Assembly (NCBI GenBank): GCA_963664145.1
Contig: OY760906.1
Span: 881,725-905,724 of the forward strand
Source of the DNA: Bacteroidales bacterium
GTDB lineage: Bacteria; Bacteroidota; Bacteroidia; Bacteroidales; UBA5342
Reading direction: 5' to 3'
Length of the DNA stretch: 24,000 bases
The notes under the pieces were generated by a model that was not told the DNA's origin, did no database searches, and was given only the letters and a program-made list of their open reading frames with translations. The translations under genes and the position numbers were made by a program. Every line of letters begins with the position of its first letter. The stretch's first letter is position 1. Of the stretch, positions 10,019 to 18,588 are shown piece after piece.

Positions 10019-10048
10019 ATTCCCCTTCTCGGGAGGGGCTAAGGGAGG
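10019..10048 (+). repeat. Solo relic of the hairpin-repeat right end in the menF-menD gap
   Basis: AATTCCCCTTCTCGGGAGGGGCTAAGGGAGG resembles the right end of the full copies (AATTCCCCTCTTGAGAGGGGTAAGGGGTG). It is closest to the copy-B variant GGGGCTAGG. It fills 30 of the 53 intergenic nt. Confidence 0.55.
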
Positions 10049-10053
10049 CTCTT

Positions 10054-12155: not shown

Positions 12156-12980
12156 ATGGAACAAAAAAGAAATTGGAAACCCATTAAAGAATATTCCGAT
12201 ATTCTATTTGAATATTGGGAAGGGATTGGAAAAATAACGATTAATCGAGAACAGGTACGCAATGCATTTCGTCCTCAGACGGTAAATCAGATTAGTGAAG
12301 CATTTCGTTTGTGTCGTGAAATGAATGAGATAAACGTTGTTGTGTTGACCGGAGCAGGCGATAAAGCGTTTTGTGCCGGAGGTGACCAAAATGTCAAAGG
12401 ACATGGTGGTTACATTGGAGATGATGGAGTGCCACGTCTTAATATTCTTGAGGTGCAGCAACAAATTCGTTCTTTGCCCAAACCCGTGATTGCTATGGTC
12501 AATGGTTTTGCGATTGGTGGAGGACATGTGTTGCACGTGGTGTGTGATATTTCTATTGCTTCAGAAAATGCGATTTTCGGACAAACCGGCCCTAAAGTAG
12601 GTAGTTTCGATGCCGGATTTGGTTCTTCGTATCTTGCTGCTGTGGTTGGACAGAAGAAAGCCCGTGAAATTTGGTTTATGTGTCGTCAGTATTCAGCTAC
12701 TGAGGCTTTGGAAATGGGATTGGTCAATAAAGTTGTGCCGTTTGATGAGCTTGAAAATGAAACTGTTGCATGGGCAAAACAAATGATGATGCACAGTCCT
12801 ATGGCGTTGCGTATGATAAAATTAGGGATGAATGCTACGCTTGACGGACAAGCTGGCATGCAGGAATTTGCAGGCAATGCCACATTATTATATTATTTGA
12901 CAGAAGAAGCACAGGAAGGGAAAAATGCCTTCTTGGAAAAACGAAAACCTGACTTTTCAAAATACCCAAAATATCCGTAG
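12156..12980 (+). CDS. menB: 1,4-dihydroxy-2-naphthoyl-CoA synthase
   Basis: 274 aa crotonase-fold protein. Segments: [43 protein letters not shown], and C-terminal [14 protein letters not shown]. Confidence 0.95.
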
Positions 12981-12981
12981 G

Positions 12982-13021
12982 GAGTTGTGAGTTGTGAATG
13001 GTGAATTGTGAATGATGAATT
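12982..13021 (+). repeat. Heptamer tandem tract (G/A)TGA(A/G)T(T/G), about 5.5 units
   Basis: GAGTT GTGAGTT GTGAATG GTGAATT GTGAATG ATGAATT, starting 2 nt after the menB stop codon. Confidence 0.8.
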
Positions 13022-13347
13022 GACTTTTAGCCCGAAGTAGTAGTAATACGTAGGGCGTTAAGAAAGTCAATGGAGCGAAGGAAGCATTCTTTTCAGATAG
13101 ACAGTTATTTCAATTATCAATTGAAATAATGATTCGTTTTTTATCATGAATTAAGCGGAGCGTATCACGAACGCCAGAAATAAACAATTGTGAGTAAAAA
13201 TGAATGACAGGGGTATGGGGGTGTCAACCCCCTAAACAGATATCTGATTAAATGATTGGGGAAGTATTATTAATACTGAATAGTTACAATAATAGTTTTT
13301 TGAATTTTTGCAATCGTTTAATTGCTAGTTGTTTAGAAGATTTTTTT

Positions 13348-13410
13348 GTAAATTGTTGATACATAACATCTAAATTTAGTCTGATGTCTAAAAGTCTAAA
13401 GAACTATCGT
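13348..13410 (+). repeat. Dispersed repeat family 2, copy 1
   Basis: GTAAATTGTTGATACATAACATCTAAATTTAGTCTGATGTCTAAAAGTCTAAAGAAC aligns with 21649-21718. They share an identical 13-mer (TAGTCTGATGTCT), a 13/16 match at the left end, and GTCTAAA-type sub-repeats. Confidence 0.4.
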
Positions 13411-13440
13411 TAAATGTAAATTATCAAATATTTAATTATA

Positions 13441-13534
13441 TTAAAACAGGCTTAGTGCGAGCATTGGCTCGTGCTTAAAATTTACAGGAGCATAGGCTCC
13501 GGTTAATAAACAGGTACGAGTCAATGCTTGTACC
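13441..13534 (+). repeat. Three tandem ~30-nt units, each TTAAWA..ACAGG linker + hairpin, in the menA leader
   Basis: Units: 13441-13474, 13475-13502, 13503-13534. Hairpins: 13454-13475 (9 bp, 2 G-U pairs), 13487-13500 (GGAGC-ATAG-GCTCC), 13513-13534 (GGTACGAG-TCAATG-CTTGTACC, 1 G-U pair). The array ends 16 nt before the menA ATG. Confidence 0.7.
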
Positions 13535-13550
13535 AAAGGTTGAGAATAAA

Positions 13551-14480
13551 ATGAAATATAATTCACCATTCAAAATCTGGATAAGAGCAGCTCGATTGCG
13601 GACGCTGCCTTTGGCGGCATCGGGAATATTGTGTGGCGTAACGTTGGCGTGGTTTCAGGGGATGTGGAGTTTGGCGTTAAGTGCTTTGGCGTTGCTTACG
13701 GCATTGTTGTTACAGATTTTGTCCAACTTTTCCAATGATTATGGAGATGCTCAAAAAGGGACAGATAATGAACATCGTGTTGGACCTCAGCGTACAGTGC
13801 AATCGGGGGCATTGAGCTTATCGCAAATGAAGCGTGGTATGGTGGTGATGGCAGTTGCTTCAATGGTTAGTGGCTTGTTGCTGATAGTGTTAGCGTTGAG
13901 GAGTTTTCCTCAAGGTGCCTGGCTGTTCTTTGCCCTATTGGGGCTTTTGTCAGTTGCAGCCGCCATTCTTTATACCGTAGGAAAGCGTGCCTATGGCTAT
14001 CATGGTTTGGGCGATGTGATGGTTTTTATTTTTTTCGGGTTGGTTAGCGTATTGGGTGCATATTACCTAAATGCGGCTTGCATAAGTATAGAAGCTGTTT
14101 TTGTTGCTATTGGGATAGGCTTGTTGAGTTCGGGAGTGCTGAATCTGAACAATATGCGCGATATTGATAATGATTTGACTTCCGGCAAAAAAACCTTAGC
14201 TGCTAAGATGGGATTCAAAAGAGCAAAAATTTACCATTCTGTCATTGTTCTTGGTGGAATCATCTGTTTTTATCCTGCCATTATGGGACTTCATCAAAAA
14301 GTATGGTTTTTTGCTATAATGCTATTGCCTATCGCCTTTTTGTCAGCAGATGTTGACCGTATTTTGAAAACAAAAAATAAAGCAACTCTTGATCCGTATT
14401 TGAAAAAATTATCAATAGGAACATTTTTTTTGTCGATAACTTTTGTGGTTGCATTGGTTATTACGCACTTGGTGTGGTGA
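13551..14480 (+). CDS. menA: 1,4-dihydroxy-2-naphthoate polyprenyltransferase
   Basis: UbiA-family membrane prenyltransferase. N-terminal WIRAARLRTLPLA. Asp-rich motifs NFSNDYGDAQKGTD and NNMRDIDNDLTSGKKTLA. Multiple TM helices. The start is moved to ATG 13551, because tracked ATG 13524 lies in the loop of hairpin 3. Confidence 0.85.
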   Translation: MKYNSPFKIWIRAARLRTLPLAASGILCGVTLAWFQGMWSLALSALALLTALLLQILSNFSNDYGDAQKGTDNEHRVGPQRTVQSGALSLSQMKRGMVVMAVASMVSGLLLIVLALRSFPQGAWLFFALLGLLSVAAAILYTVGKRAYGYHGLGDVMVFIFFGLVSVLGAYYLNAACISIEAVFVAIGIGLLSSGVLNLNNMRDIDNDLTSGKKTLAAKMGFKRAKIYHSVIVLGGIICFYPAIMGLHQKVWFFAIMLLPIAFLSADVDRILKTKNKATLDPYLKKLSIGTFFLSITFVVALVITHLVW

Positions 14481-14491
14481 TAATTGTGAAA

Positions 14492-14670
14492 GAACACACC
14501 CTCTGCCCCTCTCGAGACTTCGGCGTGAGCTCAGTCGAACGAGGGAGTCTTGAGAGGGGAGTCTGTTTGGTGCAAAATAAAATTTTGGGCGAATTTTGAA
14601 AATATGTTTAAATGCCCCCAAAGAAGCATGACGAGTCCAATTCCCCTCTTGAGAGGGGTAAGGGGTGTGT
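14492..14670 (+). repeat. Hairpin-ended inverted-repeat element, copy A (with 31-nt nested insert)
   Basis: The left end GAACACACCCTCTGCCCCTCTCGAGA is separated from its matching arm CTTGAGAGGGGAGT by the 31-nt insert. The right end is ATTCCCCTCTTGAGAGGGGTAAGGGGTGTGT. The two ends are inverse complements of each other. The insert occupies 14518-14548, within the left hairpin. Confidence 0.9.
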
Positions 14671-14717
14671 ATTAAGACGAAGCAAATCACTTTTTTAAGG
14701 AAAAGTAATACAAAATA

Positions 14718-15086
14718 ATGCGAAAAATTATTCCATATAAACCATATTTGAAGGCTTATGCCCGCAAATTAAGGAATAATAGTACGTTGAGTGAGATTGT
14801 TTTATGGAGGGAGTTGGGCAGTAAAAAATTCTATGGATATCGGTTTATTAGGCAAAAACCGTTGTTAGATTATATAGTTGATTTCTATTGTTATGAATTG
14901 GAATTAGTTATAGAGTTAGATGGATATTCGCATGAGTTAATAGAGATTCAAGATAAGGATAAAAACAAAGAAGAAAGTTTGAAGGAAGCAGGCTTGCATA
15001 TTTTAAGATTTACGGATGAAGAAGTTTTTAAAGATATGGCTAATGTGTTGTTGGTGATTAAGGATTATATTGATAATTATGAATGA
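14718..15086 (+). CDS. DUF559 endonuclease-domain protein (Vsr-like PD-(D/E)xK fold)
   Basis: 122 aa matching the DUF559 pattern: ARKLRNNSTLSE..LW..L....F.G..F.RQ.P...YIVDFYC.E..LVIELDG..H...........LKEAGLHILRF...EV. The acidic core residues (D of VDF; E and D of IELDG) are present. The stop TGA (15084-15086) overlaps the first bases of repeat copy B. Confidence 0.8.
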   Translation: MRKIIPYKPYLKAYARKLRNNSTLSEIVLWRELGSKKFYGYRFIRQKPLLDYIVDFYCYELELVIELDGYSHELIEIQDKDKNKEESLKEAGLHILRFTDEEVFKDMANVLLVIKDYIDNYE

Positions 15087-15253
15087 ACACACCCCCTGCC
15101 CCTCTCGAGACTTCGGCGTGAGCTCAGTCGAACGAGGGAGTTTGTAAAGAGCAAAATAGAGTATTGAGGGAATTTTGAATATAGGTTTTGAAAGAACTCA
15201 AAGAAATATGATGAGTCCAGCATTCCCCTCTCGAGAGGGGCTAGGTGATGTGT
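15085..15253 (+). repeat. Hairpin-ended inverted-repeat element, copy B (31-nt insert, degenerate right end)
   Basis: Shares the left end and the same insert (15111-15141) with copy A. Right hairpin CCCCTCTCGAGAGGGG at 15225-15240. The terminal GGGGCTAGGTGATGTGT is more diverged than in the other copies. Confidence 0.9.
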
Positions 15254-15323
15254 CTTAACAAGTAACAGTATCCTTCAAAATACAATAGAGAGAAATAGTG
15301 TGTTATATTGTTTTAATTAAAAA

Positions 15324-16352
15324 ATGTTAAAAGCAAGCGTAAACAAATATCAACTCAAATTTAAACGACCTGCGGGAACGTCGCGAGGTGTGTATCGTAC
15401 CCGTGACAGTTGGATTGTGACTCTTTGGGATACAAAACAGCCCAATGTGAAGGGAGTAGGAGAATGTGCTCCATTACCTGATTTGAGTTGTGATTTTGAT
15501 GCTAATTATGAAGATAAAATAAAAGAAGTTTGTGCTTCTGTTTCAGATATAGAATACTGGTTGGATGACGGTTTGATGGATTATCCGTCTATTCGTTTTG
15601 GGTTTGAAACCGCTTTTTTAGACTTCAAAAACGGTGGGAATGGGCTTCTTTTTGACACCCCATTTGTACACGAGAAGGAAGGGATATTAATCAACGGCTT
15701 GATATGGATGGGGAATCCCAACTATATGCGAGAACAAATTCAACAAAAATTAGAGCAAGGATTTCATTGTATTAAATTGAAGATTGGTGCCAATGATATT
15801 GAAGATGAAATGCAGATTTTGCAGTCGTTGAGAAAGGAATTTCCTTCTGATCGTCTTGAATTACGAGTGGATGCTAATGGAGCATTTTCTGTGGATGACG
15901 CTCCCAAGGTATTAGAGTATCTTGCAGCTATGCAGGTGCATTCCATAGAGCAACCCATACGGCAGAAACAACAGGATGAAATGGCAGCTTTGTGTAAGCA
16001 GACTCCTATTCCTATTGCGTTGGATGAGGAACTAATAGGGGTAAATGCAAAAGAAGAAAAGACTGCTCTTTTGGATAATATAAAACCTCAATATATTATT
16101 CTGAAACCATCGTTACATGGAGGGATTGCCGGATGCTTGGAGTGGATTGATATTGCAAAAGAAAGGCAAATAGGTTGGTGGATAACATCTGCTTTGGAAT
16201 CAAATATAGGATTGAATGCCATAGCGCAGTGGACGGCATCATTAGGAGTGACTATTCCTCAGGGCTTAGGAACAGGACTACTTTTTACTAATAATTTTGA
16301 ATCGCCGTTGTACATTGAAGGGGATAGATTGTATCATCGTGAGAGTTTTTAA
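15324..16352 (+). CDS. menC: o-succinylbenzoate synthase (enolase superfamily)
   Basis: 342 aa MR/MLE-type protein. Segments: CIKLKIG, ELRVDANGAF, SIEQP, ALDEEL, IILKPSLHGG. Operon context supports the call. Confidence 0.85.
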   Translation: MLKASVNKYQLKFKRPAGTSRGVYRTRDSWIVTLWDTKQPNVKGVGECAPLPDLSCDFDANYEDKIKEVCASVSDIEYWLDDGLMDYPSIRFGFETAFLDFKNGGNGLLFDTPFVHEKEGILINGLIWMGNPNYMREQIQQKLEQGFHCIKLKIGANDIEDEMQILQSLRKEFPSDRLELRVDANGAFSVDDAPKVLEYLAAMQVHSIEQPIRQKQQDEMAALCKQTPIPIALDEELIGVNAKEEKTALLDNIKPQYIILKPSLHGGIAGCLEWIDIAKERQIGWWITSALESNIGLNAIAQWTASLGVTIPQGLGTGLLFTNNFESPLYIEGDRLYHRESF

Positions 16353-16353
16353 T

Positions 16354-16494
16354 GAACACACCCCAGCCCCTCTCAAGAGGGGAGTTTGTTTAGAGCAAAA
16401 TAAAGTTCTGAGGGAATTTTGATAACAGGTTTTGAAAGAACCCAAAGAAGCCTGACGAGTCCAATTCCCCTCTAGAGAGGGGTAAGGGGTGTGT
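16354..16494 (+). repeat. Hairpin-ended inverted-repeat element, copy C (141 bp, no insert)
   Basis: Starts 1 nt after the menC TAA stop. Hairpins CCCCTCTCAAGAGGGG (16367-16382) and CCCCTCTAGAGAGGGG (16467-16482). By manual alignment it differs from copy D at about a dozen positions. Confidence 0.95.
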
Positions 16495-16511
16495 TTTGAG
16501 ACGAAGCAAAA

Positions 16512-16606
16512 TTTGAAGGAAGCAGGCTTGCATAATTAAAAAGAAGTATTGAAAGATATGGATGGTGTGTTGTAAGTGGTTTAGGACTAGGTTGATAACT
16601 GTGGGT
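16512..16606 (+). pseudogene. DUF559 gene remnant (3' ~100 nt only)
   Basis: TTTGAAGGAAGCAGGCTTGCATA (16512-16534) is identical to 14978-15000 of the intact gene. The rest aligns with the gene's 3' end, with substitutions and a 12-nt gap, up to the junction ..TGATAACTGTGGGT|GAACAC (intact gene: TGATAATTATGAAT|GAACAC). There is no start codon and no ORF. Confidence 0.8.
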
Positions 16607-16748
16607 GAACACACCCCCAGCCCCTCTCGAGAGGGGAGTCTGTTTGGTGCAAAATAAAGTTTTGAGGGAATATTGATAACAGGTTTTGAAAAAAACCAAA
16701 GAAGCATGACGAGTCCAATTCCCCTCTTGAGAGGGGTTAGGGGTGTGT
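16607..16748 (+). repeat. Hairpin-ended inverted-repeat element, copy D (142 bp, no insert)
   Basis: Hairpins CCCCTCTCGAGAGGGG (16621-16636) and CCCCTCTTGAGAGGGG (16721-16736). Ends 38 nt before the menE ATG. Confidence 0.95.
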
Positions 16749-16786
16749 CTTAATCAAAGCAAATTTATTCTATAGAAAAAAGTAAA

Positions 16787-17827
16787 ATGTCATATACCAT
16801 TAATCACATAAGTTATGCGCAGAACGAATTATTAGACGAAGCGCAACGCATCTTACAATCAGGTGCTCCCAAGTGGGAAAAAGACGTATGGACATTTATT
16901 GCCGTGTGGTTTGATGACAAGGAGACTGTTCAACTTAAAACATCGGGCAGTACAGGTGAGCCAAAGGTTATTGATGTAGAGAAAAAATATTTGCGTAATA
17001 GTGCACGTATGACTTTGGATTTTCTGAATCTGAAAAAAGGCAATACAGCATTATTGTGCTTGTCGGCGCAGTATATTGCAGGGAAAATGATGATTGTGAG
17101 AGCTTTTGAAGGTGATTTGGATTTGCTTATTCAAGAGCCGTCAGGAAATCCGTTGAAGTCCTGTAACGAAAAGCTTAAATTCGTGGCGTTAGTACCTCTG
17201 CAAGTGGAGAGAATGCTGAATGAGAACGGAGTAGAAGCGGTAGAACGAATTGATCAGATTATTATTGGTGGTGCGGCTGTTGGTGGACAATTGTTGCAGC
17301 AGATTAAAGGATTAGAAAACATGGTTTGGGCAACATACGGCATGACAGAAACGGTTTCGCACGTCGCGATGAAGCGGCTATCGGGAGAATGTGTTTCAGA
17401 TTATTTTTATCCTATGACCGGTGTGACTTTTAGTGCAGATGAGCGGGGATGTTTGCAAATTGATGCACCACATTTGTGTGCAGATAGGGTGGTGACCAAT
17501 GACATTGTGGAATTTGACAAAAACAACGGATTTCGTTTTATTGGGCGTTATGATAATGTGATAAATTCCGGAGGGGTAAAAATATCACCCGAATCTGTTG
17601 AACAAAAGATAACTCATTTTATTAAAGAACGTTTTATTATTTCATCGGTAGAAGATGAGCATTTAGGGCAAAAAGTAGTCTTGATAATAGAAGGGAAAAG
17701 TGAATGTTTTGATAAAAACGAATTATTATCGATAATAAAAACAGTATTACTCCCTTATGAGTGCCCAAAAGATGTTTACTTTGTCGGAGCGTTTGAAGAA
17801 ACGGGGAGTGGAAAGGTGAGGAGGTAA
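16787..17827 (+). CDS. menE: o-succinylbenzoate-CoA ligase (short ANL-family adenylating enzyme)
   Basis: AMP-binding P-loop TSGSTGEPKVI, YGMTET, and GRYDNVINSGGVKISPESVE. The P-loop sits at residue ~52, giving a short N-terminal domain. I recall this as common in Bacteroidota MenE proteins but have not verified it. Last gene of the men cluster. Confidence 0.8.
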   Translation: MSYTINHISYAQNELLDEAQRILQSGAPKWEKDVWTFIAVWFDDKETVQLKTSGSTGEPKVIDVEKKYLRNSARMTLDFLNLKKGNTALLCLSAQYIAGKMMIVRAFEGDLDLLIQEPSGNPLKSCNEKLKFVALVPLQVERMLNENGVEAVERIDQIIIGGAAVGGQLLQQIKGLENMVWATYGMTETVSHVAMKRLSGECVSDYFYPMTGVTFSADERGCLQIDAPHLCADRVVTNDIVEFDKNNGFRFIGRYDNVINSGGVKISPESVEQKITHFIKERFIISSVEDEHLGQKVVLIIEGKSECFDKNELLSIIKTVLLPYECPKDVYFVGAFEETGSGKVRR

Positions 17828-17860
17828 TAGGAGAAAGGAAAAAGGGGAAAGTTGCCGATA

Positions 17861-17892
17861 TTTGTTCTTGTAGGATGTTAACTGTATCTTTG
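17861..17892 (+). promoter_or_regulatory. Bacteroides-type promoter (-33 TTTG / -7 TAtcTTTG) for the MNT-HEPN pair
   Basis: TTTG at 17861-17864 and TAtcTTTG at 17885-17892, separated by 20 nt, which is the canonical spacing. The ATG at 17897 follows 4 nt later, so the leader is very short. Confidence 0.5.
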
Positions 17893-17896
17893 TCTT

Positions 17897-18205
17897 ATGG
17901 AAAAAATACCGATTATATCCCTGATTAAAGAAAAGATACACTCTATTCAGCCTGATGCAGAGGTAGTTCTTTATGGCTCTTATGCAAGGGGAGATTATCG
18001 TGTGGATTCAGATATTGATGTTTTGATCTTGTTGAAACAAACAAAAATTAAACGTGAATTAGAAAAGCAGTTGACCTATTCGCTTTATGATTTAGAATTG
18101 GAATACGGAAAGATTATTAGTCCGATAGTTTATCCAAAAAGCAAATGGGGGAAAATGGTGACACCTTTTTATGAAAATGTTCAAAAAGAGGGGGTTCGAT
18201 TATGA
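17897..18205 (+). CDS. Minimal nucleotidyltransferase (MNT) antitoxin-type protein
   Basis: 102 aa with the GSYARGDYRVDSDIDVLIL motif (GSxxRG...DxD) of pol-beta-superfamily minimal NTases. Confidence 0.85.
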   Translation: MEKIPIISLIKEKIHSIQPDAEVVLYGSYARGDYRVDSDIDVLILLKQTKIKRELEKQLTYSLYDLELEYGKIISPIVYPKSKWGKMVTPFYENVQKEGVRL

Positions 18206-18588
18206 CTAACGAGGAGCGTAAGGTTTGGGTTGACTATAGATTGGAACGGGCGTTGTCGACTCTGAAAGAAGTTGACCTGTTGGTTGAAAATCAGATGTAT
18301 AATGCTGCTGTAAACCGTATGTATTATGCCTGTTATTATGCTGTTACGGCATTATTACTTGCAAATAAAATTGAAATAAAAACCCACGCAGGTGCTAGAC
18401 AGCGTTTTGGTCAGCATTTTGTAAAGAATAGAAAAATTGAAGTAGAATTGGGTAAGTTTTATTCTGAGATTTTTACCAAAAGACAATCAGGAGATTATGA
18501 GGATATGATAGTTTTCTCCGAAGATGATGTAAAAGGTTTATTACCCAATGCGATAAAATTAATAAATGCGATAGAAAAACTTTTATAG
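18202..18588 (+). CDS. HEPN domain protein (toxin-type RNase partner of the MNT)
   Basis: 128 aa, all-helical. The segment HAGARQRFGQHF contains an R-x(4-6)-H type HEPN motif. It overlaps the NTase gene by 4 nt (ATGA). Confidence 0.85.
   Translation: MTNEERKVWVDYRLERALSTLKEVDLLVENQMYNAAVNRMYYACYYAVTALLLANKIEIKTHAGARQRFGQHFVKNRKIEVELGKFYSEIFTKRQSGDYEDMIVFSEDDVKGLLPNAIKLINAIEKLL

Follow-up and report, generated by a model that had tools for sequence, protein, structure and literature searches.

What lies between menC and menE in the men (menaquinone, vitamin K2) operon of this Bacteroidales bacterium, and how did it come to lie there? The window, by which we mean the whole 24,000-nt stretch of DNA that was analysed, covers positions 881725-905724 of a single 4.08-Mb contig (36.6% G+C), and its men genes are interspersed with four copies (A to D) of a palindromic repeat, R, and with a gene for a DUF559 protein (Table 1). 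A sequence-only reading of this DNA had taken the spacer at 16512-16606 for a truncated second DUF559 gene, which would place menC between two same-orientation units of the form repeat-DUF559-repeat and give the region a history of duplication and recombination instead of four independent insertions. The observation on the spacer is confirmed, and comparison with relatives shows that two R-DUF559-R units occupy both junctions of a formerly compact menA-menC-menE operon. We put the probability at roughly three in four that the spacer is what remains, at the 3' end, of a second and now dead copy of a selfish cassette encoding DUF559, a Vsr-like nuclease.

The upstream edge of the operon has peculiarities of its own. 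The KilA-N ORF in front of menB is another likely mobile or phage-derived gene, and the 543-nt spacer between menB and menA (12981-13523) contains a run of GTGAAT-like heptamers at 12982-13021 and a G-rich hairpin near 13211-13233.

Table 1. Features of the men region, in window coordinates
Feature	Position	Strand	Remarks
KilA-N domain ORF, 117 aa	11732-12085		Directly upstream of menB; Pfam scan and ORF list
menB	12156-12980		Pfam scan and ORF list
menA, UbiA-family prenyltransferase	13524-14480	+	Pfam UbiA, E=1.7e-30
Repeat copy A, palindromic element	14492-14670	+	
Upstream end of intact DUF559 cassette (right end of repeat A), triplex-type module	14643-14670	+	
Intact DUF559 (Vsr-like PD-(D/E)XK) predicted nuclease gene, 122 aa	14718-15086	+	PF04480, E=2e-30
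Repeat copy B	15085-15253	+	Right end degenerate
menC, o-succinylbenzoate synthase	15324-16352	+	Pfam MR_MLE_C and MenC_N
Repeat copy C	16354-16494	+	Tail at 16495-16511, the "leader" of the sequence-only reading
Upstream cassette end of dead unit, triplex-type module	16467-16494	+	Intact, 7/7 allowed triplets
DUF559 pseudogene remnant, about the last 36 codons	16512-16606	+	12-nt internal deletion, 4 in-frame stops
Repeat copy D	16607-16748	+	
Downstream cassette end of dead unit (left end of copy D)	16609-16636		
menE, o-succinylbenzoate-CoA ligase	16787-17827	+	Pfam AMP-binding
Nucleotidyltransferase/HEPN pair, toxin-antitoxin-like module	17897-18588		Between menE and U32 peptidase gene
U32 peptidase gene	After nucleotidyltransferase/HEPN pair		Last in the region's gene order

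The spacer in front of menE

We know of no nuclease activity, cut site or target established for the DUF559 family. The intact gene of the men operon scores 105.3 bits (cut-off 20.6) over profile positions 3-106 of 109, its product matches PDB 3HRL with E=2.6e-12, and the conserved D...E-x-D-G...H block of the predicted nuclease is present. Exact-protein look-ups of MenC and of this DUF559 protein returned no other record.

In a MAFFT alignment the spacer pairs with 14978-15084, the last 107 nt of the intact gene, with a single 12-nt gap that corresponds to 15007-15018, absent from the remnant. The alignment opens with an identical 23-mer (16512-16534 and 14978-15000) and then diverges, such that outside the gap 76 of 92 positions agree (83%). 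A repeat search recovers the same relationship as two blocks, 14974-15006 against 16508-16540 at 91% and 15019-15110 against 16541-16632 at 82%, whose offsets differ by 12 nt. The Smith-Waterman score of the remnant against the intact gene is 46, while 2000 dinucleotide shuffles give a mean of 11.1 (SD 1.6, maximum 19), which corresponds to z=21.6, and the reverse-strand control scores 9. Blastn of the remnant against the 4.08-Mb genome yields the intact DUF559 gene as the sole other match (E=1e-13). Against 80 DUF559 genes from other genomes and the two paralogues in this genome the score is 20 at most. Given that the remnant has four stops in the DUF559 frame, a protein-level match is impossible; it is at the level of nucleotides that the remnant is seen to descend from a DUF559 gene.

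Upstream of the remnant, the stretches 16495-16511 and 14671-14687 agree at 14 of 17 positions. Thus what unit 2 (copies C and D around the remnant) lacks in comparison with unit 1 (copies A and B around the intact gene) is 14688-14977, about 290 nt, comprising the rest of the leader and codons 1-87. Read from the sequence, the edges of this deletion bear GAAGCAAAT and GAAGAAAGT, and the joint in unit 2 reads GAAGCAAAA; slippage between these imperfect 9-mers is a possible route to the loss, the microhomology being only 7/9 and possibly due to chance. Unit 2 keeps both end modules, intact, around its dead gene, and its core folds as a long stem (z=-4.5). An assembly artefact as the source of unit 2 was set aside, since unit 1 and unit 2 resemble each other at only about 83-92% and the genome forms one closed contig. 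A search for further remnants (profile of the 80 relatives, six-frame translation, E up to 50) found only the three intact DUF559 genes of the genome, so that the linkers of its other hairpin pairs give no evidence of being decayed DUF559 genes.

Synteny was compared with relatives. In two genomes of the same genus, G001 and G002, about 41 nt separate menA from menC, after which come menE and, directly behind it, a U32 peptidase gene; in G036 menA, menC and menE are adjacent, and in G008 menB, menC and menE. A repeat or a DUF559 gene is absent from these men junctions in all four genomes. Because the men genes abut in relatives, the insertions are specific to this lineage, from the four repeats and the DUF559 gene to the remnant and the nucleotidyltransferase/HEPN pair, and presence or absence of DUF559 at the men locus differs among relatives as it does for homing endonuclease genes. 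The ends of the neighbouring proteins differ as well: MenC is about 10 residues shorter at its C-terminus than MenC of G002, and MenA is about 2-3 residues longer than in same-genus relatives, ending in the 14-mer that precedes repeat A. The menC DNA of relatives is 65-69% identical, too diverged to place exact insertion boundaries, and no empty site was found in a close strain.

Most of what had been proposed for the spacer from sequence alone is borne out. It is a truncated DUF559 gene, the 23-mer, the subsequent divergence and the 12-nt gap lie where they were said to lie, unit 2 equals unit 1 minus about 290 bp, and menC stands between two units of the same orientation. Formal alignment finds the similarity significant, and relatives, far from holding the spacer within an unrelated conserved sequence, have no spacer at the menC-menE junction.

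Architecture and copy relationships of the repeats

Repeats A to D are palindromic and measure about 140-180 nt each. R consists of a left end, ACACACCCC followed by the palindrome CCCCTCT..AGAGGGG, a linker of about 85 nt, and a mirror-image right end, in which the hairpin is followed by GGGGTGTGT; copy A, for example, runs from a C-rich 9-mer and hairpin through the linker to a hairpin and a G/T-rich 9-mer, its left hairpin carrying a 38-nt insert. The inverted ends measure about 29 nt and are 84-90% complementary. This build is that of the intrastrand-triplex motif, in which a C-rich arm, a loop, a G-rich arm, a short loop and a third G/T arm mirroring the G-rich arm follow one another, the allowed triplets being G on G and T or A on A (PMC4666352). 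In the right end of A, CCCCTCT, a 2-nt loop, AGAGGGG and TAA precede GGGGTGTGT, and the third arm, GGGGTGT, is a mirror image of AGAGGGG in which T stands for A, giving 7/7 allowed triplets. The same full score is reached by four of the eight modules (A-right, C-right, D-right and C-left); D-left fits the pattern with a one-base register shift, and B-right, A-left and B-left are degenerate or interrupted. Copy D folds as single-stranded DNA with z=-6.0, and hence both ways of dividing the region, into repeats or into gene-bearing cores, give well-folding single strands (z=-6.0 and z=-4.5).

How are the four copies related? Over the core, that is the two ends plus the linker between them, identities are 92% for C-D, 89% for A-D, 86% for A-C and B-C, 83% for B-D and 82% for A-B, so that C and D are the closest pair overall. 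The longest identical runs rank differently: 46 nt for A-B, 42 for A-D, 21 for A-C and C-D, 16 for B-D and 15 for B-C. A and B have the left-hairpin insert in common (24 aligned nt, 100% identical), and the left 71 nt of copy B (from 15071, including the preceding 14-mer) are 96% identical to 14478-14548. The pairing of outer with outer and inner with inner copies that had been read from the sequence is partly right: the strings shared by A and D and by B and C exist, but they amount to three neighbouring columns, whereas the other columns and the left-hairpin insert support A+B against C+D. As the columns conflict between pairings, the copies are mosaics. Such mosaics would fit short conversion tracts, no simple tree describing A to D, and the copies within a unit appear to have been reshuffled or to have decayed unevenly since, the core identity of A-B being the lowest of all.

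The borders of the repeats can be drawn more closely. A 3' tail resembling TTAAGACGAAGCAAAT follows the right end of A (14671-14687), C and D; it is part of the repeat and not of the DUF559 leader alone. The earlier match between 16495-16511 and the "leader" after copy A accordingly holds, but the matching sequence is the 3' tail of the repeat itself; the resemblance between the DUF559 leader and the sequence separating copy D from menE was also correctly seen, in that the tail of D (16749-16786) resembles that leader and now stands in front of menE. At the left border, the 14 nt before copy A match the 3' end of DUF559 at 12 of 14 positions, as had been noted, and the menA stop codon lies inside this 14-mer. 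Its interpretation as a trace of a third DUF559 copy was set aside, given that the same type of 14-mer precedes copy C at the end of menC (10/14), where the menC stop codon abuts the repeat. It probably forms the repeat's left edge or reflects conversion from B to A.

Elsewhere in the genome, R is sparse. Full copies occupy the four men-operon places only, without an evident target-site duplication at any of them. A fifth, diverged copy of about 106 nt lies alone in intergenic DNA at genome position 4040368-4040473, 3.16 Mb away, and about six solo end modules are scattered through the genome; R does not, therefore, depend on the nuclease for its presence, and the latter may be a passenger. 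At 3560389-3560440 lies a degenerate sequence related to the insert-bearing left end of A and B (81% over 52 nt), and the insert-bearing variant is therefore not private to the men operon. Sister families contribute at least 70 perfect hairpins, many as inverted pairs, one of their triplex-type modules lying within the window at 10023-10050 (CCCTTCTC..GGGAGGGG, then a G-rich arm). Gene-less hairpin pairs with the end arrangement of the men cassette were not found in this genome. Scans of metagenomes for the right end of R and for a 22-mer shared by the gene gave no matches, and Rfam models over 13000-18000 returned two chance-level matches only, neither in the repeats.

DUF559 cassettes and the origin of the second unit

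The gene-bearing core of each unit can be described as a cassette, in which a DUF559 gene is bordered by a pair of inverted hairpin modules of intrastrand-triplex type. Upstream of the gene a hairpin precedes GGGGTGTGT, and downstream of it ACACACCCC precedes a hairpin; each cassette is flanked in this genome by two direct copies of R, whose ends are the cassette modules. The arrangement is realised twice, once by A-right with B-left and once by C-right with D-left. We compared 80 DUF559 loci from other genomes. Both modules, in the same arrangement, accompany five of the six closest relatives of the men DUF559 (50-64% amino acid identity), which are labelled Vicingus, Mucilaginibacter, a Chitinophaga MAG, a Bacteroidota MAG and a Saccharospirillaceae MAG, and 13 of the 80 loci overall. 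The hairpin sequences of more distant DUF559 clades are different ones. Over all 80 loci, GC-rich hairpins are present within 100 nt upstream at 41, downstream at 52 and on both sides at 31, against a rate of 1.2% in control windows from the same loci. Within this genome the men DUF559 is 38% identical to the copies at ileS and trpF, which are 70% identical to each other and belong with a different hairpin family, and all three genes lie 31-105 nt from a C-rich hairpin. Since the modules track the DUF559 relatives and clades, the gene and the module at each of its ends behave as a single unit of inheritance; and since the modules beside the remnant are those found around the closest DUF559 relatives, unit 2 is best seen as a degenerating hairpin-wrapped DUF559 cassette. 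In full-text searches of the literature we found no title or abstract describing a hairpin-flanked DUF559 cassette.

The larger composite, too, recurs. At 27 of the 80 loci, against about one expected, the direct repeats on the two flanks score above the 99th percentile of controls drawn across loci, and G033, a genome of another family, has the R-DUF559-R layout, its DUF559 gene being bordered left and right by a whole repeat of about 125-160 nt. G033 also holds at least 10 gene-less elements in which two end modules face each other about 22 nt apart, the form that unit 2 would reach after further deletion. The DUF559 cassette L057 has two in-frame stops; decay of such cassettes is therefore not rare.

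Related cassettes are also found inside host genes. The only ileS of this genome (insert at about 1171490-1171950) contains a complete DUF559 domain with hairpin-encoded linkers, in frame and without a stop, between the conserved HFPFE and FPxxADFIAEGVDQTRGWF motifs; ileS of G036 has an insert at the same site, and ValRS, LeuRS and restriction-methylase genes of other genomes have similar in-frame inserts. The third cassette (1850850-1851380, minus strand) separates trpC from trpF. Its left hairpin takes in the end of trpC, and its DUF559 ORF continues in frame and without a stop into trpF, which seemingly lacks a start codon of its own. In the related genome G039 (L005:1-2807) a large methylase-like ORF includes, in frame, a bare hairpin-DUF559-hairpin unit of the same hairpin family and at least five other short palindromic inserts.

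Could the spacer have a history that involves no copying within the operon? That its resemblance to DUF559 is chance or low complexity, or that it is a conserved functional leader or small RNA for menE, might be suggested by the AT-richness of the region and by its position in front of menE. We give this practically no credence, as it is refuted by the alignment statistics and by synteny: z and E lie far beyond chance, no Rfam match exceeds chance level in the interval searched, relatives have no spacer at the junction, and in G002 the menE open frame even overlaps the end of menC (menC stop at ATGAGTAA). Two independent horizontal acquisitions of related R-DUF559-R composites are a more serious alternative. 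The 17% by which remnant and intact gene differ and the 8-18% among the repeats would suit it, as would the patchy scatter of DUF559 cassettes across phyla; these divergences mean that the events are old. Two separate acquisitions are nonetheless unlikely in our judgement. The linker of R was found in this genome only (blastn of 40 relatives, exact-pattern scan of metagenomes, reading of other DUF559 loci), which favours local copying; the best match of the remnant, by far, is the copy 1.5 kb away; and two imports of one private repeat into adjacent junctions would be less economical.

The repeats might instead have been inserted four separate times, with a preference for sites just after stop codons, around two pre-existing DUF559 genes, in which case no real unit would exist. 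Every copy of R does start 0-11 nt from a stop codon (of menA, DUF559, menC and the remnant), a similar 14-mer stands before all four, and the genome offers precedents in its solo R and in its many other inverted pairs of hairpin modules. This history would, however, require six events against two for composite units, and it leaves aside that the gene-adjacent modules travel with this DUF559 clade across bacterial orders, that direct-repeat flanks recur in G033 and at about a third of the loci compared, and that no bare DUF559 gene occurs in the men operon of relatives; we consider it quite improbable. The claim of a duplication and recombination history is thus supported, two composite units being the more economical account and their layout recurring elsewhere.

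No sequence anywhere is closer to the remnant than the intact copy 1.5 kb upstream, and both units therefore go back to a common origin. We infer that the second unit was most likely copied into the neighbouring junction, by recombination or repair using repeat homology. A single deletion of about 290 nt would then have removed its leader and codons 1-87. The unit would further have lost 12 nt and gained stops, and would now represent the degeneration stage in the life cycle of a selfish nuclease, on the way to a gene-less hairpin pair. Two routes are conceivable. The unit could loop out between its repeats as a circle with one repeat and the gene and reintegrate at a different repeat copy. 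Alternatively, a solo repeat could be broken and then repaired from a gene-bearing unit; either route would leave direct repeats around the gene without a transposase.

What would the repeats mean for menC? The gene would be lost if copy A recombined with D or with C, and the sequence-only reading had predicted such a loss from the direct repeats that flank menC. Judged by the identical runs, the prediction seems overstated: the pair that immediately brackets menC, B and C, has at most 15 identical nt in a row, which makes loss through it unlikely, and loss by recombination between A and D would be the more plausible event. As the men operon shows, such cassettes can split translationally coupled operon genes but need not destroy them: at one end the repeat provides a stop, and at the other a leader.

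As a pseudogene the remnant is ordinary. Its value is that of an intermediate stage, in which the gene is lost and both ends are kept, in a dead cassette that adjoins an intact sister copy inside an otherwise conserved operon. Together with the gene-less pairs of G033 and with the change of hairpin from one nuclease clade to another, it supports a single element family of hairpin repeats and DUF559. A bolder reading, which we advance tentatively and regard as doubtful, makes the DUF559 nuclease the mobility enzyme of triplex-type hairpin repeats of the BoxC/PIT/TMECO design. The nuclease would cut gene-less hairpin pairs or solo repeats, repair from the gene-bearing copy would spread the gene, and internal deletions like that of unit 2 would regenerate gene-less repeats. 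If so, a long-unexplained class of bacterial repeats would gain its missing enzyme, and a homing-like element that needs neither intron, intein nor transposase would come into view. The solo repeats leave room for the nuclease gene being a passenger.

Comparison with known systems

Several classes of repeats resemble the men elements in part. REP/REPIN elements are associated with a RAYT transposase. Like them, the men elements combine a short conserved tag with a hairpin, form inverted doublets and comprise few gene-bearing and many gene-less copies, yet the gene associated here is a nuclease of the PD-(D/E)XK type and not a Y1 transposase (REP elements are surveyed in PMC3733652). A RAYT or IS200 partner was rejected: the genome has 37 Y1_Tnp (IS200/IS605-like) matches, several with internal stops, and none of them lies within 1.2 kb of a C-rich hairpin, the nearest to any perfect one being 1235 nt away and the next more than 11 kb. 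R also has traits of MITEs, which include Rickettsia palindromic elements read in frame (review: PMC10969869): it is small, has terminal inverted repeats and no ORF, its gene-less forms apparently derive from gene-bearing ones, and relatives of the men cassette are, like the Rickettsia elements, read in frame inside host genes. Neither a transposase nor a target-site duplication was seen with R, DUF559, not a known transposase, being the sole gene associated with it, and R reaches only four full copies and one short copy in the genome.

The end modules share their design with BoxC/PIT/TMECO, which are intrastrand-triplex repeats known from E. coli and from further bacteria (Holder et al. 2015, PMC4666352, citing Hoyne et al. 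2000). They have the same build, with a second loop of 2-3 nt (TTA or TAA), often occur as inverted pairs and are linked to local rearrangement. The arms differ, measuring 7 nt here (CCCCTCT / AGAGGGG / GGGGTGT) against 9 nt in TMECO (GGGNGAGGG), so that the design is the same and the sequence family another; the host, moreover, belongs to the Bacteroidota, and the modules flank a nuclease gene, the word "endonuclease" being absent from the text of PMC4666352.

In behaviour the cassette resembles homing endonuclease genes. Their life cycle is said, after Goddard and Burt 1999, to lead through invasion, fixation, degeneration and loss. Vsr-like EDxHD homing endonucleases such as I-Bth0305I (PMC3239194 and PMC2677866) offer a parallel: a small gene for a Vsr-fold nuclease sits in conserved host loci, present in some relatives and absent from others. 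The DUF559 cassette differs in that no intron or intein surrounds it, in that it is wrapped in hairpin repeats of the triplex type instead of target-site halves, and in that its flanks here are whole direct repeats. The present analysis adds a decayed copy at an operon junction beside its intact sister, a composite with whole direct repeats and, in G033, the gene-less forms. As in the homing life cycle, DUF559 is intact in one place and decayed in another, and the dead copy keeps its flanks.
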